Shown piece by piece: positions 1 through 9,373 of a stretch of DNA of 9,373 nucleotides. Every line of letters begins with the position of its first letter. The first letter of the stretch is position 1. The notes beneath the pieces were generated by a model. The model did not search any database and was not told the origin of the DNA. It saw nothing but the letters and a program-made list of their open reading frames with translations. The stretch is from a virus (Duplodnaviria; Heunggongvirae; Uroviricota; Caudoviricetes): IMG/VR virus record IMGVR_UViG_2563366846_000008; one strand, written 5' to 3'. The translations under genes and the position numbers were made by a program.

Positions 1-750
1 ATGAGACGTGTTTTCTTGTTCACGCTGACGTGTGTTACAACTCTAATGTCTTTCGCTGTAGTTGCTGATAAGGGCGAACGCATGGACTTCGTTGCTGCAA
101 ATCAATGTCGGAGTCAGCCGGATGATGCAAAGCGGATAGAATGTTATGACAAAGCTGTAACTCCAACACGCACTAAAACATTAGAAAAGTTTGACAGCAG
201 GGATCAATGCAGGGAGGAGGCGTGGGAGAAAAAAAGGCTGTCTTGCTATGATCGTTTTTTTTCTCCAACATTCACTAATGCCAAAGTTGACAAAGTACAT
301 GAAGACAGTAGGGATGTTGGGAACTGGAAGGTTGATATAAAAACATCTCCAATCGATGACTCTAAAAATGTTGTTATCTTTGTTAATGGTAATGATTCTT
401 TTAGATCCCCGTTTGGAGACAACATAACCCCAACTCTTTATATTGCGTGTAGGGAAAATAAAACAGAACTGTTTATAGATTGGGATGTATACTTGGGGCT
501 GAACCAAACTACGATGATTCATCGAATAGATAAACAAAAAGCCATAAACAGAGAGTGGTCTATTTCAACAAATACAAAGGCCGTCTTTTATGATGGCAAT
601 GTGATTGATTTTATAAGAAAGTTACAAAATGGTAATCAGCTATTTGCTCAGATAACCCCATATAGTGAAAGCCCGGTGAGCACAACCTTTAATCTCAAAG
701 GTCTTTCTGAAGTTATTAAACCATTACAAGAATCATGTAACTGGAAATAA
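1..750 (+). CDS. Secreted hypothetical protein with N-terminal signal peptide and tandem Cys-pair repeats; A+T-rich cargo gene
   Basis: ORF from ATG at position 1 to TAA at 748-750 (249 aa). N-terminus MRRVFLFTLTCVTTLMSFAVVA looks like a Sec signal peptide. Two copies of a C-x12-C-Y-D motif (QCRSQPDDAKRIECYDK and QCREEAWEKKRLSCYDR). Visibly more A+T-rich than the tail genes. The upstream region is outside the window, so RBS and true start cannot be checked. Confidence 0.7.
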   Translation: MRRVFLFTLTCVTTLMSFAVVADKGERMDFVAANQCRSQPDDAKRIECYDKAVTPTRTKTLEKFDSRDQCREEAWEKKRLSCYDRFFSPTFTNAKVDKVHEDSRDVGNWKVDIKTSPIDDSKNVVIFVNGNDSFRSPFGDNITPTLYIACRENKTELFIDWDVYLGLNQTTMIHRIDKQKAINREWSISTNTKAVFYDGNVIDFIRKLQNGNQLFAQITPYSESPVSTTFNLKGLSEVIKPLQESCNWK

Positions 751-773
751 CTATTGGTGTTGTTTTCCGAATA

Positions 774-804
774 ATAGCCCCGCAATTGTATATTGCGGGG
801 CTAT
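774..804. terminator. Bidirectional intrinsic terminator between convergent genes
   Basis: Perfect 13-bp inverted repeat ATAGCCCCGCAAT (774-786) / ATTGCGGGGCTAT (792-804) with a 5-nt loop TGTAT, followed by TGTTTG on the + strand. Sits between the stop of the 1..750 gene and the stop of the 828..1124 minus-strand gene. Confidence 0.6.
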
Positions 805-827
805 TGTTTGGGTCTGATTGTCAGGCA

Positions 828-1180: not shown

Positions 1181-1228
1181 CTCAATTTAAATTTGGGTGC
1201 CACTTCGACCTTACCCTGGCAACCGATT

Positions 1229-1251
1229 GACGGGGGATTGCTCCCCCCGTC
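1229..1251. other. GC-rich stem-loop immediately 3' of the hok-like ORF (minus-strand sense)
   Basis: GACGGGGG (1229-1236) and CCCCCGTC (1244-1251) form an 8-bp stem with a 7-nt loop. It lies about 10 nt downstream of the hok-like stop codon on the minus strand. Hok-family mRNAs carry structured 3' ends, but this assignment is inference. Confidence 0.35.
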
Positions 1252-1260
1252 GCGGTTTCC

Positions 1261-1401
1261 TTACTGCTTACACTGTAAGAACGCCGCAAACTCCGCTCCC
1301 CAGAAGCTCATCCGTATTTCACACAGCGAACCGTGCAGCATCCAGATGATGAGGATTGCCGTCACGCAGAACGTGATGGCCGTAAGCGATTTTTGCGACA
1401 T
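1261..1401 (-). CDS. hok: Hok/Gef-family type I toxin (small membrane toxin), not in the supplied ORF track
   Basis: Manual minus-strand translation from the ATG at 1401-1399 to the TAA at 1263-1261 gives 46 aa: MSQKSLTAITFCVTAILIIWMLHGSLCEIRMSFWGAEFAAFLQCKQ. It has one hydrophobic transmembrane stretch followed by SLCEIR...AAF, which matches the Hok-family pattern as I recall it (R1 Hok ...KSLCEIR...EVAAF...; HokA-like ...AAFLACK). RBS AAGGAG about 9 nt upstream. Overlapped by a longer upstream ORF in another frame, as mok overlaps hok. Confidence 0.55.
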   Translation of the reverse strand: MSQKSLTAITFCVTAILIIWMLHGSLCEIRMSFWGAEFAAFLQCKQ

Positions 1402-1504
1402 AGCGCTTGCTCCTTTTTCGGGGAGGCGCTAACCTATCACTTGCTAAGGGTAGATGGTTAGGGCCTCGGGTTAACGTTAAAGTTGACTCGGGGCTTTTCC
1501 ACAT
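1319..1504 (-). CDS. mok-like overlapping leader reading frame upstream of and overlapping the hok-like ORF
   Basis: 61-aa minus-strand ORF (MWKSPESTLTLTRGP...) starting at 1504 and overlapping the hok-like ORF (1401-1261) in a different frame, as mok does with hok in plasmid R1. Sequence is not recognisably conserved; called on architecture only. Confidence 0.3.
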   Translation of the reverse strand: MWKSPESTLTLTRGPNHLPLASDRLAPPRKRSKRYVAKIAYGHHVLRDGNPHHLDAARFAV

Positions 1505-1592
1505 CTGGCCTTCGGGTATTCCCTCCGACCATCAGCCGAAAGGCACCCGCGCGTAATCTATCGCTTTTTTGTTACTCCGGCAATTCTGCCTG

Positions 1593-1853
1593 TTAATTCT
1601 GAGGTAAAGGCAAACTCATCTGATTGTTTCCCCTGTGTGAAGCTGGCAGCTCATGCCACGGGATACCTTCTGAAGAGTGAACGCCGGAGGCGTGTTTTGA
1701 TGTGAATTTATGGAAAGCTTCCAGTGTTGAGAAGCATACGCCGCATTCCAGATTGTTACACTGGTAATACTTTTGCCGCACGGTGTTTGAATCATTTTCC
1801 GGACGACTGGTGCGGATACGGGCAGATGCGCCACAAAGCGGACAACGGAACAT
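1593..1853 (-). CDS. ogr: Ogr/Delta-family zinc-finger late-gene transcription activator
   Basis: 86-aa ORF beginning MFRCPLCGASARIRTSR...YYQCNNLECGVCF, the CxxC...CxxxxC zinc-finger N-terminus typical of P2 Ogr. Consensus SD AAGGGAGG 5 nt upstream of the ATG at 1853. Sits immediately downstream of gene D on the same strand, as in P2. Confidence 0.85.
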   Translation of the reverse strand: MFRCPLCGASARIRTSRPENDSNTVRQKYYQCNNLECGVCFSTLEAFHKFTSKHASGVHSSEGIPWHELPASHRGNNQMSLPLPQN

Positions 1854-1895
1854 AGCGACCTCCCTTAACGTGGTGCTGCCGCTATTCTAAGTTGC

Positions 1896-3005
1896 TCACT
1901 CTGTTTCCGCTATCCATTCCGGGATTTTTGCCTCAAGCTCAAGCTGCGTGGTAAAGCCACTGTTATCAATGGTGTGCTCGGCTTTCGCAATAATCCAGTC
2001 CTGATTATCAATCTCGCTTTTAAATCCTGTTACCGTGCCATGCATTTCGGGGTAGAGTTCTGCTCGTCCACGTGCCAGCGTGATGGAGAATGATGCGGCT
2101 CCGCGTTGTAGTTGTTGCCACTTTGCCGCCGCTGCGCGTCTTGCTGCCTGCTCGTTCTGATAAGTCTTGCGTAACACAAACACATTGCCTTCCGCGCCTT
2201 CCATATAATCACCTTCACGGCTGCTGCTTTTCTCCTTTTTGGGCTTGGGCGGTTTGCGGCGTTTCACGCTGACTTTTTTCTTTTTCCCGTAATTAAGATC
2301 AAGCCAGTAAGCGCGTACCCCCGTATACGCTTCGCGGTCAGCAATGCGGAACTGATGGCGATCGCCGCTGCTGCGTGTAATGGCGAACGATGGCAACGGC
2401 TGGCCCTGTGCGTTCACGCCACCGCCGGGCATGATGAATAACAGATTACCGCTTTTTACCGTGGTGATTGCGCCCAGCATTTCCGCCATGCGCGTAAGGA
2501 AGGACATGTCACTTTCTTCGGTCTGGTCGGCGTGGTCGATTTCGATATCCATCAGCATTTCGCTGATTTGCGGTTTCAGACCGTACCGATGAGCGATGGC
2601 GGATACCACACGCTCAACGGTCACATCATGCCAGGACACCTCACGTTTAACGTTAAATTCATCCCGAAAATCTGCGCTTCTGGCTGAAACAGTCAGCCTG
2701 TCCGGCGGTCCTTCGTGAGCGATTTCATCAACAATGTAAGTGCCTTTTTCTGTCAGCGGTTCTCCTTTCCAGCCAATGAGAACCGTCAGGCGCGCGCCCC
2801 GTGGCGGTAGCTGCAACTGACCATCCGCATCATCCAGCGTGATGGTGAGCTGGTCTGCTTCAAATCCCCGGTTGTCGGTCAGTGACAGACTCATCAGGCG
2901 CTCTGCCACGCCGGACAGCGTTTCCCCCTCCGCGAGAATATCAAAATCCGGCATTTTCACGGGGTCTGTGCTCTGACTGAGCAATTGCATGGTGGTGTCG
3001 GTCAT
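1896..3005 (-). CDS. D: Phage tail protein D (gpD, late control gene D / baseplate hub family)
   Basis: Translation carries gpD-like blocks (SLSLTDNRGFEADQL..DDADGQL, SARSADFRDEFNVKREVSWHD, FLTRMAEMLG, a Lys-rich linker KKKKVSVKRRKPPKPKKEK, GFTTQLELE). Start preferred at the ATG at 3005 (MTDTTMQ...), which has a strong SD GGGAGGG 4-5 nt upstream; the in-frame ATG at 3026 has no SD. Confidence 0.9.
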   Translation of the reverse strand: MTDTTMQLLSQSTDPVKMPDFDILAEGETLSGVAERLMSLSLTDNRGFEADQLTITLDDADGQLQLPPRGARLTVLIGWKGEPLTEKGTYIVDEIAHEGPPDRLTVSARSADFRDEFNVKREVSWHDVTVERVVSAIAHRYGLKPQISEMLMDIEIDHADQTEESDMSFLTRMAEMLGAITTVKSGNLLFIMPGGGVNAQGQPLPSFAITRSSGDRHQFRIADREAYTGVRAYWLDLNYGKKKKVSVKRRKPPKPKKEKSSSREGDYMEGAEGNVFVLRKTYQNEQAARRAAAAKWQQLQRGAASFSITLARGRAELYPEMHGTVTGFKSEIDNQDWIIAKAEHTIDNSGFTTQLELEAKIPEWIAETE

Positions 3006-3161
3006 CTTTCCCTCCCTGTGCGGCATGGTCGCATGTGCGTGCGGAGTGGGTTACTGCTTTTTGTTGTCGCCGTGGCGGGAGAACGGCGCAGGGGTGAGAT
3101 TACGCGCGTGGTGGGTGATGATTGTTGCCGAATCATTTAACGGATACAAGGGGCTGAAGCT
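3006..3161. promoter_or_regulatory. Divergent intergenic region between D (-) and FI (+); presumed late promoter region for the sheath operon
   Basis: 156-bp non-coding gap between two divergently oriented genes with strong RBSs on both sides. Contains a GC-rich dyad CGCCGT-N9-ACGGCG (3068-3088). No clean Ogr-type TGT-N12-ACA box was found by eye, so the promoter call is positional inference only. Confidence 0.35.
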
Positions 3162-4346
3162 ATGAGTGAAACTCGTTTTCATGGTGCCCGTGTCACGGAA
3201 AGTACCGACCTGGTAACAGCGATTAATGATGTTGATTCCAGCGTTATCGGTATCGTGGCAACGGCGGATGATGCGGATGCGGAGCTGTTCCCGCTGAACA
3301 AGCCCACACTGCTGACCCGCGTCAATGACGTGCTGGGAAAATGCGGTACTACGGGGACGCTTTATCGTGCGCTTAAGGCTATCGCAGACCAGGTGAGCAC
3401 AAAGGTGATCGTCGTTCGCGTGGCTGAACACAAAAAAGAAGGCGGTAAGACGCAGGATCAACTGGTTATCGGTGGTTCTGAGGATGACGGCAGCTATACG
3501 GGGATGTATGCGCTGCTTGTTGCAGAGCAGGATGAAAGCATCGGATACCGTCCGCGCATTCTGGCTGCGCCGGAGCTGGACACGGAGGCGGTGACAAAAT
3601 CTCTGTGCGTGATTGCAGGTAAACTGCGCGCGTTTGTGTATGCCTCATGTCATGGCTGTGACACGATGGCCGAGGCAATTACCTACCGCCAGAAATTCAA
3701 CGAACGTGAGGTGATGCTCTTATGGCCGGACTTTATCGCCTACAACCCGAAAAGTGGCAAAAACGAAACGTTCCCCGCGCCTGCCTATGCGTGCGGCCTT
3801 CGTGCGTACATTGACCATGAGCAGGGCTGGCACAAATCGCTGTCCAACGTTCCGGTTAAAAATGTGCTGGGGATGTCCAGGCATGTGTTCTGGTCGTTGC
3901 AGGCCGAAGACAGTGATGCCAACAGCCTCAACAACAAAGAAATCACGACCATTATTCGTCGCAACGGGTTCCGCTTCTGGGGCAACCGCACACCGGAAAC
4001 GAACGCCTACATCTTTGAGGTGTATACCCGAACCGCACAGGTGCTGGCTGATTCAATTGCGGAAGCGCAGTTTGAAACCATCGACAGTCCACTGACGCCT
4101 GCGAACGTGAAGGATGTTATCAGTGCCATCAGGGCAAAACTGGATTCACTGGTTACTGCCGGGAAACTGATTGGTGCGGAGTGCTGGTATGACGTGGTGG
4201 ATAACGGCACCACGAATTTACGTCAGGGGCGTGTGCGTATTCGCTACAAATATACGCCTGTTCCCCCGCTGGAAGACATGGAGCTTTACCAGTCGTTTAC
4301 TGATGAATTCTTTGGTCCCGCATTTGCGGTGCTGGGAGGTGCCTGA
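3162..4346 (+). CDS. FI: Contractile tail sheath protein (P2 gpFI family)
   Basis: 394-aa ORF with RBS AAGGGG 8 nt upstream. Conserved sheath blocks (FPLNKPTLLT, KLRAFVYASCHGC, YRQKFNEREVMLLWPDF, HEQGWHKSLSNV, IRRNGFRFWGNRT, YKYTPVPPLEDM) match P2 FI as recalled. Stop TGA overlaps the FII start (TGATG). Confidence 0.95.
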   Translation: MSETRFHGARVTESTDLVTAINDVDSSVIGIVATADDADAELFPLNKPTLLTRVNDVLGKCGTTGTLYRALKAIADQVSTKVIVVRVAEHKKEGGKTQDQLVIGGSEDDGSYTGMYALLVAEQDESIGYRPRILAAPELDTEAVTKSLCVIAGKLRAFVYASCHGCDTMAEAITYRQKFNEREVMLLWPDFIAYNPKSGKNETFPAPAYACGLRAYIDHEQGWHKSLSNVPVKNVLGMSRHVFWSLQAEDSDANSLNNKEITTIIRRNGFRFWGNRTPETNAYIFEVYTRTAQVLADSIAEAQFETIDSPLTPANVKDVISAIRAKLDSLVTAGKLIGAECWYDVVDNGTTNLRQGRVRIRYKYTPVPPLEDMELYQSFTDEFFGPAFAVLGGA

Positions 4347-4858
4347 TGGCTGTACCAAAACATCTTCGCTTTTTTACGTTGTTTGTGGATGGTGAAAACG
4401 AAGTGGGTAAAGTGACATCCGTCACGCCGCCCAAACTGACGCGCAAAACCGACAGCTATCGTGGTGGTGGCATGATGGGGGCAGTAAGTATTGATCTCGG
4501 TCTGGACGACTCCGCACTTGATGCGAGTTTTGTCATGGGGGGAGCTGTTCGTGCGCTGTTCCTTAAATATGGCGGCACGATTGACGGCACGCTGCTGCGT
4601 TTTGCGGGTGAATACTACACCGATGCAGAAAGCGATCTGTATGAAATCGAGATGCGCGGGCGTGTGACGGAAATTGATATGGGGGAAGCCAAACAGGGCG
4701 AAGCCACATCACACACTTACGCTGTCAAAAACACCTACTACAAGCTGAGCGTTAACGATCGCCCGCTGTGGGAAATCGACCTGTTGAACCACATCTACCG
4801 GAAGGACGGCAAGGACATTGTGCCTGACCGCATCCGTTCCGCGCTTGGGCTTGGCTGA
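4346..4858 (+). CDS. FII: Tail tube protein (P2 gpFII family)
   Basis: 170-aa ORF translationally coupled to FI (ATG overlaps the FI TGA; GGGAGG 6 nt upstream). Motifs VTPPKLTRKTDSYRGGGMMGAVSIDLGLDD and LRFAGEY...EIEMRGRVTEIDMGEAKQGE resemble P2 FII. Size and position immediately after the sheath gene fit. Confidence 0.95.
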   Translation: MAVPKHLRFFTLFVDGENEVGKVTSVTPPKLTRKTDSYRGGGMMGAVSIDLGLDDSALDASFVMGGAVRALFLKYGGTIDGTLLRFAGEYYTDAESDLYEIEMRGRVTEIDMGEAKQGEATSHTYAVKNTYYKLSVNDRPLWEIDLLNHIYRKDGKDIVPDRIRSALGLG

Positions 4859-4871
4859 TAAGTAATATGCA

Positions 4872-4890
4872 GGCGGCGCAGTGCGTCGCC
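4872..4890 (+). other. Intergenic stem-loop between tube gene and gene E (possible attenuator or mRNA-stability element)
   Basis: GGCGGCGC (4872-4879) / GCGTCGCC (4883-4890) forms an 8-bp stem with one G-U pair and a 3-nt loop. It is not followed by a T-run, so it is not a canonical intrinsic terminator. Confidence 0.35.
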
Positions 4891-4913
4891 TCTGACTGAA
4901 AAGGAGACAACTG

Positions 4914-5288
4914 ATGAAAGACATCGATACTGAAACCCGGAATAACACCGTGGCGGATGATGTGACGGCAGGTGAGGATATGGCTGTCGAACGTGGCGTA
5001 AAACTGACCCGACCAATTGAGCGTGGTGGCGAAAAAATCACGTATGTGGAGATCACCGGGGCTATTGAACAGGCTGGATCCCTGCGTGGTCTGTCGCTGT
5101 CTGATGTGCTGAATCTGAAAGCGGATACCATGTTCACGCTGTTGCCTCGCGTGACCTCGCCACGACTGGATGAAGTGATGATTAAAAAAATGTCGTCACG
5201 CGATTTTATTCAGTTGTGCGCTGTGGCTGTAAATTTTATGAGCGAGCCAGACTCTGGCGCGAAGAGCGTGCAGGCGACGGCAGCGTAA
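4914..5288 (+). CDS. E: Tail assembly chaperone gpE (zero-frame product)
   Basis: 124-aa ORF with RBS AAGGAG upstream. Lies between tube and tape-measure genes, the conserved position of the tail chaperone. Its 3' part is overlapped by a -1 frame that is open from 5186 to 5452. Confidence 0.85.
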   Translation: MKDIDTETRNNTVADDVTAGEDMAVERGVKLTRPIERGGEKITYVEITGAIEQAGSLRGLSLSDVLNLKADTMFTLLPRVTSPRLDEVMIKKMSSRDFIQLCAVAVNFMSEPDSGAKSVQATAA

Positions 5289-5452
5289 TCACCCTGGTGT
5301 GCTTTGAGCACATCGAAGATCTGGTGGCAGATATCGCCGCCATTTTTAACTGGTCGCCCGCCGAAATCTTCATGATGACGCCCGGCGAAGTGGTTAGCTG
5401 GCGTGAGCGGGCGGCACTTCGCAGCGGGAATGCAGACAATGAAGACTCTTGA
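4914..5452 (+). CDS. E+E': gpE+E' tail chaperone fusion made by programmed -1 ribosomal frameshift
   Basis: The -1 frame relative to E is open from 5186 (after TAA at 5183-5185) to TGA at 5450-5452 and overlaps the start of T. Candidate slip sites inside the overlap are the A7 run at 5184-5190 and the heptamer A_AAT_TTT at 5231-5237. The chaperone frameshift between tube and tape-measure genes is conserved in long-tailed phages and known in P2 E/E'. The exact slip site is not determined. Confidence 0.6.
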
Positions 5453-8246
5453 TATCCGGGTCGCTTTCAGCGCCGTTGACAGGCTGACCCGGCCTGCCGA
5501 AAACGCCCGCCGCCTGATGGGGCAGTTTGGTGACTCCATCCAGCGAACGCAGGGGGCGATCAAAAATCTCGAGCGTCAGGCGCGATCATTTGAGCGCGCC
5601 CGCGACGCTGTCAGTAAAGCGGATGCGGGTATCGTGAAAGCACGACGCCAGCTTAACGCCCTTAATCAGTTACAACGCACGGGTACAGTGCTCAGCGAAA
5701 AACAACAAAAGCTGATGCAGCAGTTAAGCACCCGGCTTGAACGCCTGAATGAATCGCGCACACGGGAAATTCAGAAAATGCGGGAGCTTGGCGGAGAGCT
5801 GAAACGCCACGGCATTTCCCTGACAGGCAGCGATAACACCATCCAGCAGGCCATCAGACGCACCGAACAGTACAACAACCAGCTTGAACGTGAACGGCAG
5901 GCGCTTGCGCGTGTAACGCGGGCGCGTGAGCGGTATTCGCGCACGCAGGAAACAGCGGGAAAACTGAAAACAGGTGGTGCGCTGGCAATTGGTGCGGCAG
6001 CGGCTGGCGGCTATGCTGCCGGGCGTTTTTTGCAGCCCGCTATCGGGTTCGGGAAAGAGATGTCCCGCGTTCAGGCGCTGACGCGAATCGACCAGAACAG
6101 TCCACAGTTTAAGGCGCTGCGTGAACAGGCGTTAAAACTTGGCTCTGAAACGCAGTTCACCGCAGGCGATGCCGCCAGTGGGCAGGCATTTCTGGCAATG
6201 GCTGGTTTTACTCCGCAGGCCATTCAGGCTGCGCTCCCTGGCGTACTGAGCATGGCAACGGCTGGCGGTATGGACCTCGGCGAGACGGCGGATATTGGCT
6301 CAAATATTCTGACGCAGTTCGGTCTTTCTGCTGACCAGATGGACCGGGTCGGCGACACACTCACTGCAGCGTTTACCCGTACCAACACTGACCTTCGCGC
6401 ACTGGGCGAAACCATGAAATATGCAGGCCCGGTGGCAGGTAAGCTGGGAATATCGCTGGAGCAGGCCGCAGCGATGGCGGGCGTGCTGGCGAATATGGGG
6501 ATCAGGGGGAGTGATGCTGGCACAGCGTTGCGTAAAAGCCTTGCCAATCTGTCATCGCCGCCAAAGGCGGCAGCAGAAGCTCTGAAAGAGCTGGGAGTGG
6601 CTGTCTCTGATGCGAACGGCAAAATGCGCCCGATGGAGGATGTGCTGGTCGACCTTTATAAAGCCACCCGCAAATACGGGGAAGTTGACCGGGTATCCTT
6701 CTTTAAGGACATCGCCGGAGAAGAGGCTTTCACATCATTTATGGCCCTCGTTGATGCGGCGGGTAACGGCTCCTTACCCAAACTGAGAAAAGAACTTGAG
6801 GGCGCACGCGGTGAGGCTGAACGCACGGCAAAAGTTATGGCCGACAACCTTGATGGCGATCTGAAATCACTCGGCAGTGCATGGGAAGGGTTGCGCATCC
6901 GCATTGCAGATCTGATTGATGGTCCGCTGCGTTCTGTCACGCAGTGGCTCACGCGGGTGGTCTCAAAAGTGACGGCACTGGCGCAGGCCCATCCGGCACT
7001 GACACGCCAGTTACTGATAGCAGGCGGTGCGTTACTGGCAATGACTGCAACGATTGGCTCGTTGTCGCTGGTTATTGGGGTGCTTTACGGGAAACTGGCC
7101 ACCTTGCGTCTTGGTTTCGACATTCTTACCCGGTCAATGAATGTCGTCAGGGTGTTGCCTGCGCTGTGGGGAATGGTGACGGGTTCTGTTTCTTTGCTGG
7201 GAGGCGCTATCGGGGCGCTGTTCAGTCCGGTTGGTCTTATCGTGGCTGCGCTTGCCGGAGCTGCCGTTCTTATCTGGAAATACTGGGATCCCATCAGGGC
7301 ATTTTTTGCCGGGGTGTTCAGCGGGATTATGGAAAGGCTGACCCCGTTGCGCGAAACCTTTGAACGGTTTGGTCCTGTTTTTGACGCAATCGGAAGCGGG
7401 ATAAGCCAGGTGTTTAACTGGTTTAAATCGCTGCTGTCACCGATGGAGTCCAGCAAGGAAACGCTGGATAAATGTACCAGTGCTGGCGAGATATTCGGTA
7501 ACGTTCTTGGTGGCGCGCTACAGCTTGTTCTGACGCCTGCAAAAATGTTGCTGGATACGCTGGCGTGGATACTTGAAAAACTCGGTGTGCTTCCGGATGA
7601 AGCGGAAAGGGCGAGAAAGAAAATCGAAGACGCACAGCGTGCGGCCATTCTTCAGGACAAGGTTGCTCTGTTTCAGGGAGACATTGCGAAAATCAATCCG
7701 CCGAAGTCCGCGGAAAATGGCAATGGCACCGGAGGCGATAACCCCAAAGATAACAAACCGCTCACAGACAGCAATACCGGCACGCTACGCAGACTCAGCA
7801 AAATTGCTGATAACACAGGTAAGCTGGTTGATGAGACAAAAAAACGTATTGGCCCCGGCGATATTGTCTTTAAGAACCTGCCCCGCGCACTTGCTGTTCG
7901 TGGGGAGTGGCAGGAGCGGAAGATTGCGCAGGTCAGTAAACCTGCTTCCGCAATCAACATCACACCCGTGGTCCCGACTCCGCTGCCTCCGGCGCTGGTC
8001 CCTGTTGTTGCGGCCAGCTCCCGCCCGGTGGCGGAGGCCATACGATCGCCAGTGGCATCAGTTCCTGCAACTTCCCGTAACCGGGAGCCTGTTGCCTCCG
8101 GATTTGGCGGTGAAATTCATGTTCATCTGCATAACGTTGTTACGCAGAATCCCCGCGAACTGGCGAAACTGGTCGGTGAAATGGTCAGGGCAGAGACGGA
8201 ACGGCGCACCCGTGCCGGACGTGGCAGTTTTTACGATAAAGATTGA
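5439..8246 (+). CDS. T: Tail tape measure protein (P2 gpT family)
   Basis: Long ORF of about 935 aa from the preferred ATG at 5439 (GGGA about 9 nt upstream); alternative in-frame starts at 5430 and 5403. Coiled-coil-like N-terminal third, central tape-measure core region, two long hydrophobic segments (LIAGGALLAMTATIGSLSLVIGVLYG and GAIGALFSPVGLIVAALAGAAVLIW) and a Pro-rich C-terminal region. Start overlaps the end of E'. Confidence 0.9.
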   Translation: MKTLDIRVAFSAVDRLTRPAENARRLMGQFGDSIQRTQGAIKNLERQARSFERARDAVSKADAGIVKARRQLNALNQLQRTGTVLSEKQQKLMQQLSTRLERLNESRTREIQKMRELGGELKRHGISLTGSDNTIQQAIRRTEQYNNQLERERQALARVTRARERYSRTQETAGKLKTGGALAIGAAAAGGYAAGRFLQPAIGFGKEMSRVQALTRIDQNSPQFKALREQALKLGSETQFTAGDAASGQAFLAMAGFTPQAIQAALPGVLSMATAGGMDLGETADIGSNILTQFGLSADQMDRVGDTLTAAFTRTNTDLRALGETMKYAGPVAGKLGISLEQAAAMAGVLANMGIRGSDAGTALRKSLANLSSPPKAAAEALKELGVAVSDANGKMRPMEDVLVDLYKATRKYGEVDRVSFFKDIAGEEAFTSFMALVDAAGNGSLPKLRKELEGARGEAERTAKVMADNLDGDLKSLGSAWEGLRIRIADLIDGPLRSVTQWLTRVVSKVTALAQAHPALTRQLLIAGGALLAMTATIGSLSLVIGVLYGKLATLRLGFDILTRSMNVVRVLPALWGMVTGSVSLLGGAIGALFSPVGLIVAALAGAAVLIWKYWDPIRAFFAGVFSGIMERLTPLRETFERFGPVFDAIGSGISQVFNWFKSLLSPMESSKETLDKCTSAGEIFGNVLGGALQLVLTPAKMLLDTLAWILEKLGVLPDEAERARKKIEDAQRAAILQDKVALFQGDIAKINPPKSAENGNGTGGDNPKDNKPLTDSNTGTLRRLSKIADNTGKLVDETKKRIGPGDIVFKNLPRALAVRGEWQERKIAQVSKPASAINITPVVPTPLPPALVPVVAASSRPVAEAIRSPVASVPATSRNREPVASGFGGEIHVHLHNVVTQNPRELAKLVGEMVRAETERRTRAGRGSFYDKD

Positions 8247-8258
8247 GGAGTCATGGTT

Positions 8259-8747
8259 ATGATGATGATCTACGGCATGTTTGTTTTTGAGCTGCGCACA
8301 CTGCCGCATCAGCAGTTACAGCAAAACAAAAGCTGGCGGCATGTGAAAAATGAACGCGTTAACCGTTCAGCAAGCTGGCAGTATATCGGTGCAGGTGATG
8401 ATCGCATCGTGCTTTCCGGCGTGCTTTATCCTGAAATTACAGGTGGCGAAGTGTCGCTTTCGTTGCTGACCACGCAGGCATATACAGGACGCCCCTGGCC
8501 TCTGATTGATGGTGTCGGGCAGATTTACGGCATGTATGTACTGACTGAAACGAATACGACCCGTTCCGAGTTTGATCGCTACGGTAAGGCGAAAAAGATA
8601 GAATTTTCACTGACTCTTGAACGCTGTGATGAGGATTTGCGGGAGCGCCTGCAATCCTCATCGTTCAGTGATATGCTGTCCGGCTTCAAAGATAAGGTCA
8701 CATCATCCCTTAACAGCGCGGCCAGCTCCGTTAAAGGGCTGTTTTGA
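8259..8747 (+). CDS. U: Tail protein U (P2 gpU family)
   Basis: About 162 aa from the ATG at 8259 (SD GAGGAG ends at 8250; in-frame ATGs at 8253, 8262 and 8265 are alternatives). Motifs FVFELRTLPHQQLQ, WRHVKNERV, GRPWPLIDGVGQIYGMYVLTE and KIEFSLTLER resemble P2 gpU. Directly follows T. Confidence 0.9.
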   Translation: MMMIYGMFVFELRTLPHQQLQQNKSWRHVKNERVNRSASWQYIGAGDDRIVLSGVLYPEITGGEVSLSLLTTQAYTGRPWPLIDGVGQIYGMYVLTETNTTRSEFDRYGKAKKIEFSLTLERCDEDLRERLQSSSFSDMLSGFKDKVTSSLNSAASSVKGLF

Positions 8748-8754
8748 TTAACGC

Positions 8755-8784
8755 AAAACCGCTAATGGTCAGATTAGCGGTTTT
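8755..8784. terminator. Intrinsic terminator of the tail operon; overlaps the invertase stop codon
   Basis: Perfect 12-bp inverted repeat AAAACCGCTAAT (8755-8766) / ATTAGCGGTTTT (8773-8784) with a 6-nt loop. On the + strand the stem ends in TTTT followed by CATTTTCC. It sits 8 nt after the U stop. The minus-strand invertase stop (plus-strand TTA at 8774-8776) lies inside the right arm. Confidence 0.55.
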
Positions 8785-9373
8785 CATTTTCCTGAGTCTG
8801 CCTGGTTGTTTCTTCAGCCTGTATATCGCCTACAGGGTGATAACGATAAATCGTCGATATGCCGATGTCGTAAATGATCGCCAGTTGTTTCCTGTCATGA
8901 CCGTTTTTAATCAGCCTCGCTATTTGCTCGTGTTGTTCTTTTGTCAACTTCGGGCGACGTCCGCCAATGCGTCCTTGTGCGCGTGCTGCTGCCAGCCCGG
9001 CCAGTGTACGCTCTACAATTAATTCACGTTCCATTTCGGCTAAAGCCCCCATGACGTGAAAAAAGAAACGCCCCATGGGTGTTGATGTGTCAATGCTGTC
9101 CGTCAGACTACGGAAATTAACACCTTTTTCCCGCAATTCCTCAATAAGCGTGATCAGGTGTTTCATACTTCTGCCCAGTCTGTCCAGCTTCCAGACAACC
9201 AGCGTATCTCCTTCTGATAGCGTTCTGAGCAGTTTTTTCAATCCCGGTCTGGCTGATTTCGTTCCGCTGATTTTATCTTCAAAAATCAGTTCACATCCTG
9301 CGCAGTTCAGTGCATTGCGTTGTAAATCCGTGTTTTGGTCATTTGTTGACACACGAATATAGCCAATTTGCAT
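8774..9373 (-). CDS. Serine DNA invertase of the Hin/Gin/Cin/Pin family
   Basis: 199-aa ORF starting exactly at the last base of the window. N-terminal catalytic motif IGYIRVSTNDQNTDLQ (catalytic Ser) and conserved blocks GDTLVVWKLDRLGRS, DSIDTSTPMGRFFFHVMGALAEMERELIVERT and GRIGGRRPKLT, with a C-terminal helix-turn-helix region. As recalled it is closest to Pin of e14 and Gin of Mu. Confidence 0.92.
   Translation of the reverse strand: MQIGYIRVSTNDQNTDLQRNALNCAGCELIFEDKISGTKSARPGLKKLLRTLSEGDTLVVWKLDRLGRSMKHLITLIEELREKGVNFRSLTDSIDTSTPMGRFFFHVMGALAEMERELIVERTLAGLAAARAQGRIGGRRPKLTKEQHEQIARLIKNGHDRKQLAIIYDIGISTIYRYHPVGDIQAEETTRQTQENENR

Follow-up and report, generated by a model that had tools for sequence, protein, structure and literature searches.

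An inverted FI-U tail-core block in a P88-like prophage and the predicted divergent late promoters beside it

In the record of phage P2, genes H, G, and fun(Z) are followed by FI-FII-E-T-U-D-ogr; the phage genes all lie on one strand, with fun(Z) opposite, and the FI operon ends with D. P2 late promoters contain a TGT-N12-ACA dyad that is recognized by Ogr (PMC3931495). The divergent P2 promoters pP/pO, from which packaging and head genes are expressed, are known from experimental mapping; their transcription starts are 111 bp apart, with one dyad box at the midpoint. Two relatives of the DNA considered here, P88 and PhiSM, are, respectively, an inducible, lytic phage and an active temperate phage, and both form plaques (PMC5285337, PMC6456863). 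Here, we analyzed a 9373-nt stretch of viral DNA, IMG/VR record IMGVR_UViG_2563366846_000008 (hereafter "the window," meaning the whole stretch), in which the tail-core block FI-FII-E/E'-T-U is inverted relative to the P2 order.

Gene order of the block in the window and its relatives

Genes were called from six-frame open reading frames (ORFs) and Pfam scans of the window (Table 1). Every tail-core component of P2-like phages (Peduoviridae) was present by Pfam match, including GpE in the −1 frame, and the proteins were 32 to 49% identical to their P2 counterparts. The window and the P2 F operon share the same genes, the E/E' frameshift design, and the position of ogr after D. They differ in layout: instead of the co-directional FI-FII-E-T-U-D, D lies on the strand opposite to FI-U, diverges from FI, and cannot be on the transcript of PF, the FI operon promoter. 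Relative to P2, it is the FI-U block that is inverted, as D and ogr retain the orientation of the other late genes (P88 map). The gene identities, the strands, and the inversion itself, all given in a preliminary description of this DNA, agreed with the ORFs, the Pfam matches, and the P2 record; D and ogr are on the minus strand upstream of FI, and the 3' end of U faces the 3' end of the invertase gene, as that description had it.

We consider it highly probable that this arrangement is a fixed ancestral inversion of FI-U in the P88-like clade, with the late promoters PF and PD sharing one Ogr box. The segment comprising the PF promoter and FI-FII-E/E'-T-U, from the end of the tail-fiber region to the U/D boundary, would have inverted once, in the common ancestor of a large P2-like clade, and would have been inherited unchanged since then. 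The FI-U operon would still be driven by an Ogr-dependent PF and would terminate in a hairpin that also serves the convergent transcription unit of the invertase or tail-fiber genes. D, back to back with FI, would be transcribed leftward from a second late promoter, PD, using the same dyad-symmetric Ogr box, which is centered ~56 bp from both predicted starts. A single activator site would thus be used both ways, as at P2 pP/pO. The ogr gene would follow D, probably also with a promoter of its own.

Named relatives have the same layout. Positions 1195 to 9367 were colinear, in one or two pieces and at 91 to 95% identity, with P88, P884B11, PhiSM, and 500465-2. Gene order and strands in P88, P884B11, and PhiSM (Xuanwuvirus, Peduoviridae) are identical to those in the window; nucleotide identity to P88/P884B11, in a comparison confined to the window, was 93.6 to 95.2% over one colinear piece amounting to 87% of it. 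The window represents the left end of a P88-like prophage in the genus Xuanwuvirus (family Peduoviridae). On the P88 map, D (−) is followed by FI to U (+), the invertase gene (−), an invertible fiber segment, and then H, I, J, W, V, and the remaining late genes (−), so among P88 tail genes, only FI-U departs from the common direction. Since P88 and PhiSM are inducible and plaque-forming, the inverted order is compatible with virion production. In the Salmonella phage SEN5 (Senquatrovirus), too, an inverted FI-U block separates the tail-fiber genes from D; no invertase is present on the U side. D identity to the window was 63 to 73% in SEN5 and Klebsiella Reipivirus prophages; for Klebsiella Reipivirus, whose record is unannotated so that gene order was not read from annotation, the value was 71 to 73%, a range seen only in divergent loci.

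To cover more distant relatives, an alignment of D proteins was scanned against one genome per bacterial species, which returned 80 loci, and the window tail proteins were placed on these loci by tblastn. The divergent layout was found at 59 of the 80, in ~25 genera and with D identity of 58 to 99%; hosts included Salmonella, Citrobacter, Klebsiella, Serratia, Pectobacterium, Erwinia, Xenorhabdus, Photorhabdus, Providencia, Morganella, Yersinia, and Aeromonas. One further locus (L119) was disrupted but consistent with this layout. The co-directional P2 layout was found at 19 loci, with D identity of 47 to 54%. Among IMG/VR loci, all 80 were divergent. The D alignment was needed to reach other genera, since a single-protein scan of viral contigs gave only relatives with a 99% identical D. 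Neighbor-joining trees were built for D, FI, FII, and U with Burkholderia phiE12-2 as the root; in these, a single clade comprised the divergent loci and included no co-directional member. The simplest reading is a single ancient inversion, inherited vertically.

Three observations concern individual records. One divergent-clade prophage (L085, NZ_JBQPOM010000071), with a D 98% identical to that of the window, lies on a 226-kb contig labeled as a Gram-positive genus ("Vagococcus sp. WN89Y"); this contig is most likely an enterobacterial contaminant or a mislabeled assembly. In the GenBank record of Citrobacter phage Shae_phiSM (OR565851, locus L002), the labels are shifted: D is called "ogr/Delta-like zinc finger," the sheath gene carries the label "late control gene D protein," and no annotation is given for the actual ogr (1994 to 2251 in L002). 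In NC_049344 (520873) and NC_049341 (503458), an IS100 element (IS21 family) is annotated inside the aligned tail region, and these P88-like prophage copies are probably defective.

The Ogr-type box and predicted promoters of the D/FI gap

The 156-bp gap between D and FI contains a single Ogr-type activator box, identified by comparison with relatives. Nowhere else in the window is a site flanked on each side by a −10-like hexamer at the correct spacing. An exact TGT-N12-ACA search of the window gave one match only, at 448 to 465, which is irrelevant here. A generic sigma-70 scan found nothing in the D/FI gap, as expected because activator-dependent promoters have poor −35 elements. Allowing up to one mismatch (TGT-N12-ACA/AGA), the box is located 75 to 89 nt before the FI ATG in 56 of 60 divergent loci. 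In P2, too, an annotated activator site of PF and a box read from the sequence lie ~80 nt before the FI ATG, the distance at which the box precedes FI in the window.

To compare the surroundings of the box, both flanks were stacked from the box edges, sequences were clustered to 30 groups below 80% identity, and an nAnnnT hexamer was scored at each offset. At 34 nt, the hexamer was present in 93% of the clusters on the FI side and in 83% on the D side; at any other offset, it did not exceed 20%. As a negative control, we used 15 P2-type loci, which have no gene beyond the box: the hexamer was found in 13 of 15 on the FI side and in 2 of 15 on the far side. P2 pP/pO, for which the record gives one activator site (3057 to 3087) and mapped starts at 3016 and 3127, served as a positive control, and hexamers were found there at the same 34-nt offset on both sides. 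In P88, the D/FI box and hexamers are the same as in the window.

Late promoters dependent on Ogr/Delta have a TGT-N12-ACA dyad centered ~55 bp upstream of the start and a −10 element at the right spacing. The D/FI gap contains a one-mismatch dyad with hexamers spaced as at P2 pP/pO, and its geometry is that of the P2 site, although the D/FI promoter pair is predicted, whereas pP/pO was mapped. We propose that transcription starts near 3129 (FI, plus strand) and 3018 (D, minus strand), 111 bp apart, around one Ogr box. The box in the P/O intergenic region of P88 itself shares TTTTGTTGT-N11-AGAAC with the D/FI box, which fits one activator reading both. We infer that D has remained a late gene and that its leftward transcription depends on a promoter with the same Ogr box as PF. 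The preliminary description had suggested that the inversion would uncouple D from the operon promoter; given the conserved leftward −10 element predicted to share the box with PF, this concern is probably unfounded.

Two further features of the D side were noted. An alternating CGCGCGCG tract lies just upstream of the predicted D −10 element, at positions 22 to 33 from the box edge, in loci L086 to L142 from many genera; the copy in the window (3032 to 3043) is degraded to gcacgcacatgc. In a Yersinia aleksiciae locus (L135), there is hardly any distance between the D-side ATG and the predicted transcription start; either the D mRNA would have no leader or a very short one, or D would begin at another start codon. 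Small ORFs over the D/FI gap (2985 to 3140, 2989 to 3165, and 3051 to 3461) were treated as spurious since they overlap the conserved promoter elements; P88 gp50 and SEN5_27 are annotated at the same position.

Several points weigh against a fixed inversion with a shared box. Both start sites and the dependence on Ogr are predictions from sequence. The box in the window, with AGA in place of ACA, is one mismatch from the consensus and is missed by an exact-pattern search. On the D side, GACCAT is a weak −10 element, and the predicted D leader is only ~13 nt. Because the sequences of the clade are related, conservation of position counts only in part as independent evidence, even though there is otherwise little conservation in the flanking columns. 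The neighbor-joining trees are simple distance trees without support values.

Some of these points would also fit an alternative in which the inversion is real and fixed but D uses an Ogr-independent promoter or another activator, the D-side hexamer being conserved for some other reason, such as the GC-alternating tract beside it. The D-side hexamer is indeed weaker and less constant than that on the FI side (83% versus 93%), the CGCGCGCG tract just upstream of it is conserved, and the D leader predicted in the window is very short. However, the two hexamers are placed in exact mirror symmetry about the box, at the same spacing as at the mapped pP/pO of P2, and the D-side hexamer is absent from its position in P2-type loci, which have no gene on that side. 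We consider this alternative unlikely.

Polarity and fixity of the arrangement

Could the divergent D/FI order be ancestral and the co-directional order of P2 derived? Gene order by itself gives no direction. However, FI to U and D are co-directional in each of the distant relatives from Burkholderia, Mannheimia, and Aeromonas (P2 itself, Burkholderia phiE12-2, Mannheimia phiMhaA1, and Aeromonas LPM4 are of this type), and the divergent loci are nested as a clade in the trees rooted on the Burkholderia phage. The reverse polarity is thus very improbable. A co-directional Mixta prophage (L144) has the invertase gene, FI to U, and D on one strand. This is the un-inverted order, which the preliminary description had arrived at by flipping the block on paper and which exists in nature.

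A divergent D-ogr/FI-U layout is the norm in relatives (P88, P884B11, PhiSM, and SEN5; 1353 E. coli genomes; 59 of the 80 species-representative loci), an outcome that the preliminary description had set beforehand as counting against its reading. Its proposal of a genuine inversion accordingly stands for an old, fixed, clade-wide arrangement and fails for an event in the source strain.

The fixity of the layout was assessed in 5426 complete E. coli genomes. Of these, 1035 covered 80% or more of the window in one place, and 1353, about a quarter, had the observed D/FI junction intact. We also constructed a synthetic flipped junction by fusing the 5' end of D to the reverse-complemented 3' end of U and searched it against all these genomes. 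It was found in none of the 1420 genomes holding both halves. The D/FI order was also unchanged in four independent assemblies in which the VasI-like gene of the window is present with its chromosomal neighbors (tamA, tamB, and a GGACT-domain gene). Beyond U, these loci (L170 to L173) contain an invertase gene, no gene, or a hexapeptide-repeat gene (a weak Pfam Hexapep match). Since these contents differ between the four assemblies, the invertase is not what maintains the arrangement. The variable slot between U and the tail-fiber genes appears to be the counterpart of the P2 fun(Z) cargo region, which lies between G and FI.

These data bear on the second possibility raised in the preliminary description, that the 5.7-kb block is a live segment flipped by a Pin/Gin-type invertase, with both orientations coexisting in cell populations. 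A serine invertase does lie directly beside the block, as in the Gin/Hin/Cin/Pin segments, and such enzymes invert tail-fiber segments in the P88 phage group (P88 map). The likeness ends there. Crossover-site repeats were not found at the ends of the block: no inverted repeat linking 3006 to 3161 with 8748 to 8784 was among the 25 longest inverted pairs, as the preliminary description had also reported for the two junctions, and no gix/hix-like core (AAACC-NN-GGTTT-like) was present at either of them, the total count of such cores being at the chance level. A second orientation was seen in no isolate, judged from genome assemblies, against 1353 genomes with the observed junction. The block lies on the 3' side of the invertase gene, whereas its own substrate is on the 5' side: the invertible tail-fiber segment is beyond the right end of the window, and in P88, the invertase gene is followed by opposed tail-fiber and assembly genes. 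Most clade members have no invertase match beside U, yet their layout is unchanged, and a flip would break the conserved, putatively bidirectional promoter. A live switch is therefore to be dropped for all practical purposes. An assembly artifact, also considered in the preliminary description, or a recent rearrangement private to the source strain has nothing in its favor except the difference from P2 and is hardly credible, as the same order is present in independently sequenced, published phages, in more than 1000 complete chromosomes, and in the four assemblies sharing the VasI-like gene and its chromosomal neighbors.

Other features of the window and implications of the arrangement

Coordinates are collected in Table 1. 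The D frame is open to 3026; the start was taken as the ATG at 3005, behind a GGAGGG Shine-Dalgarno sequence, in agreement with the P88 annotation and with the annotated length in relatives. The D protein is 99% identical to cluster P0001 (6052 member sequences). The ogr gene is located 42 nt 3' of D on the same strand and is 99 to 100% identical to the P88 and PhiSM loci. The candidate slippery heptamer of E/E', read by eye, is A AAT TTT at 5231 to 5237. T likely starts at the ATG at 5439, yielding a protein of 935 amino acids, as annotated in relatives (L170 to L173 and P88). U and the invertase gene converge on a hairpin whose folding energy is −15.6 kcal/mol on the plus strand and −16.9 kcal/mol on the minus strand (z-scores of −3.6 and −4.2); it is a plausible bidirectional terminator between these genes. 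The invertase protein is only 87 to 88% identical to those of P88, P884B11, and PhiSM.

Table 1. Features of the window. Predicted elements are marked as such.
Feature	Coordinates	Strand	Basis and remarks
VasI-like type VI secretion-associated protein gene	1-750	+	PF11319; low GC, 35-41%
Very stable hairpin	767-811		20-nt arms, folding energy −34.7 kcal/mol, z = −8
Small gene, zinc-ribbon and TM2-domain membrane protein	828-1124	−	
Hok/Gef-family toxin gene, 46 amino acids	1261-1401	−	PF01848; within region 1195-1569
mok-like ORF, longer, overlapping the Hok/Gef gene	1319-1504		
ogr, late-gene activator (zinc finger)	1593-1853	−	PF04606 Ogr_Delta, E = 5e-14
D (baseplate hub/late control D), 369 amino acids	1896-3005	−	PF05954, E = 3e-17
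Predicted −10 hexamer GACCAT of PD (leftward late promoter)	3025-3030	−	34 nt from box edge
Ogr-type activator box TGTCGCCGTGGCGGGAGA (TGT-N12-AGA)	3065-3082, center 3073.5		Comparison with relatives
Predicted −10 hexamer GATGAT of PF (FI operon late promoter)	3117-3122	+	34 nt from box edge
FI, tail sheath	3162-4346	+	PF04984, PF22671, PF17482
FII, tail tube	4346-4858	+	PF04985, E = 2e-45
E	4914-5288	+	PF10109 in frame 0, weak: 20.6 bits, under the Pfam 25-bit cutoff
E+E' −1 frameshift product	4914-5452	+	PF06528 Phage_P2_GpE in the −1 frame, E = 2e-12
T, tape measure (ORF)	5403-8246	+	PF10145, E = 1.5e-58
U, final gene of the inverted block	8253-8747	+	PF06995 (GpU), E = 5.5e-39
12-bp hairpin with U-tracts on both strands	8755-8784		Terminator scan; overlaps the invertase stop codon
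Serine DNA invertase (Gin/Hin/Pin type)	8774-9373	−	PF00239, E = 1.5e-51, and PF02796 (Resolvase/HTH_7)

The first ~1.2 kb of the window, with the VasI-like and TM2 genes, is absent from the P88, P884B11, and PhiSM records. The VasI-like gene lies at the prophage/chromosome border and adjoins tamA, tamB, and the GGACT-domain gene (probably ytfP); the best E. coli megablast matches begin only at ~820, past this gene. The exact VasI-like protein was found in 85 blocks of the assembly collection, with the same context in the four places shown. The hairpin between the VasI-like and TM2 genes is probably a bidirectional terminator. The hok stretch is 82 to 85% identical to hok loci of Stx-converting phages (933W and VT2-Sakai). 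By Rfam, no Sok-type RNA was found near it, and the scan of the window gave 0 matches at the gathering threshold.

The arrangement is already present in published phage genomes classified by the International Committee on Taxonomy of Viruses (ICTV), and its novelty is low. The inversion goes unmentioned in the publications on P88, PhiSM, and SEN4/5, and nothing on an "inversion" in Peduoviridae was found in accessible papers; subscription literature and ICTV proposals may differ. Neither a shared-box PD/PF promoter nor the inversion as a clade marker is discussed in the accessible literature. Tentatively, and with less confidence than doubt, we suggest that the inversion created a second pP/pO-style bidirectional late promoter, with one Ogr operator serving PF and a new PD, and that this is an undescribed shared derived character of Xuanwuvirus, Senquatrovirus, probably Reipivirus, and many unnamed prophages in ~25 genera of Enterobacterales and Aeromonas.

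When P2-like prophages are annotated on the basis of the P2 map, roughly one in four complete E. coli genomes will show an "inversion." This is the usual gene order in the P88/SEN5 clade and should not be taken for a rearrangement or misassembly; it also marks, in a simple way, a deep split among the Peduoviridae. The arrangement is also a testable example of a phage surviving the break-up of an operon: a symmetric activator site carried with the inverted block appears to be reused in the opposite direction, and such reuse would keep the hub gene D, and via D ogr, under late control.

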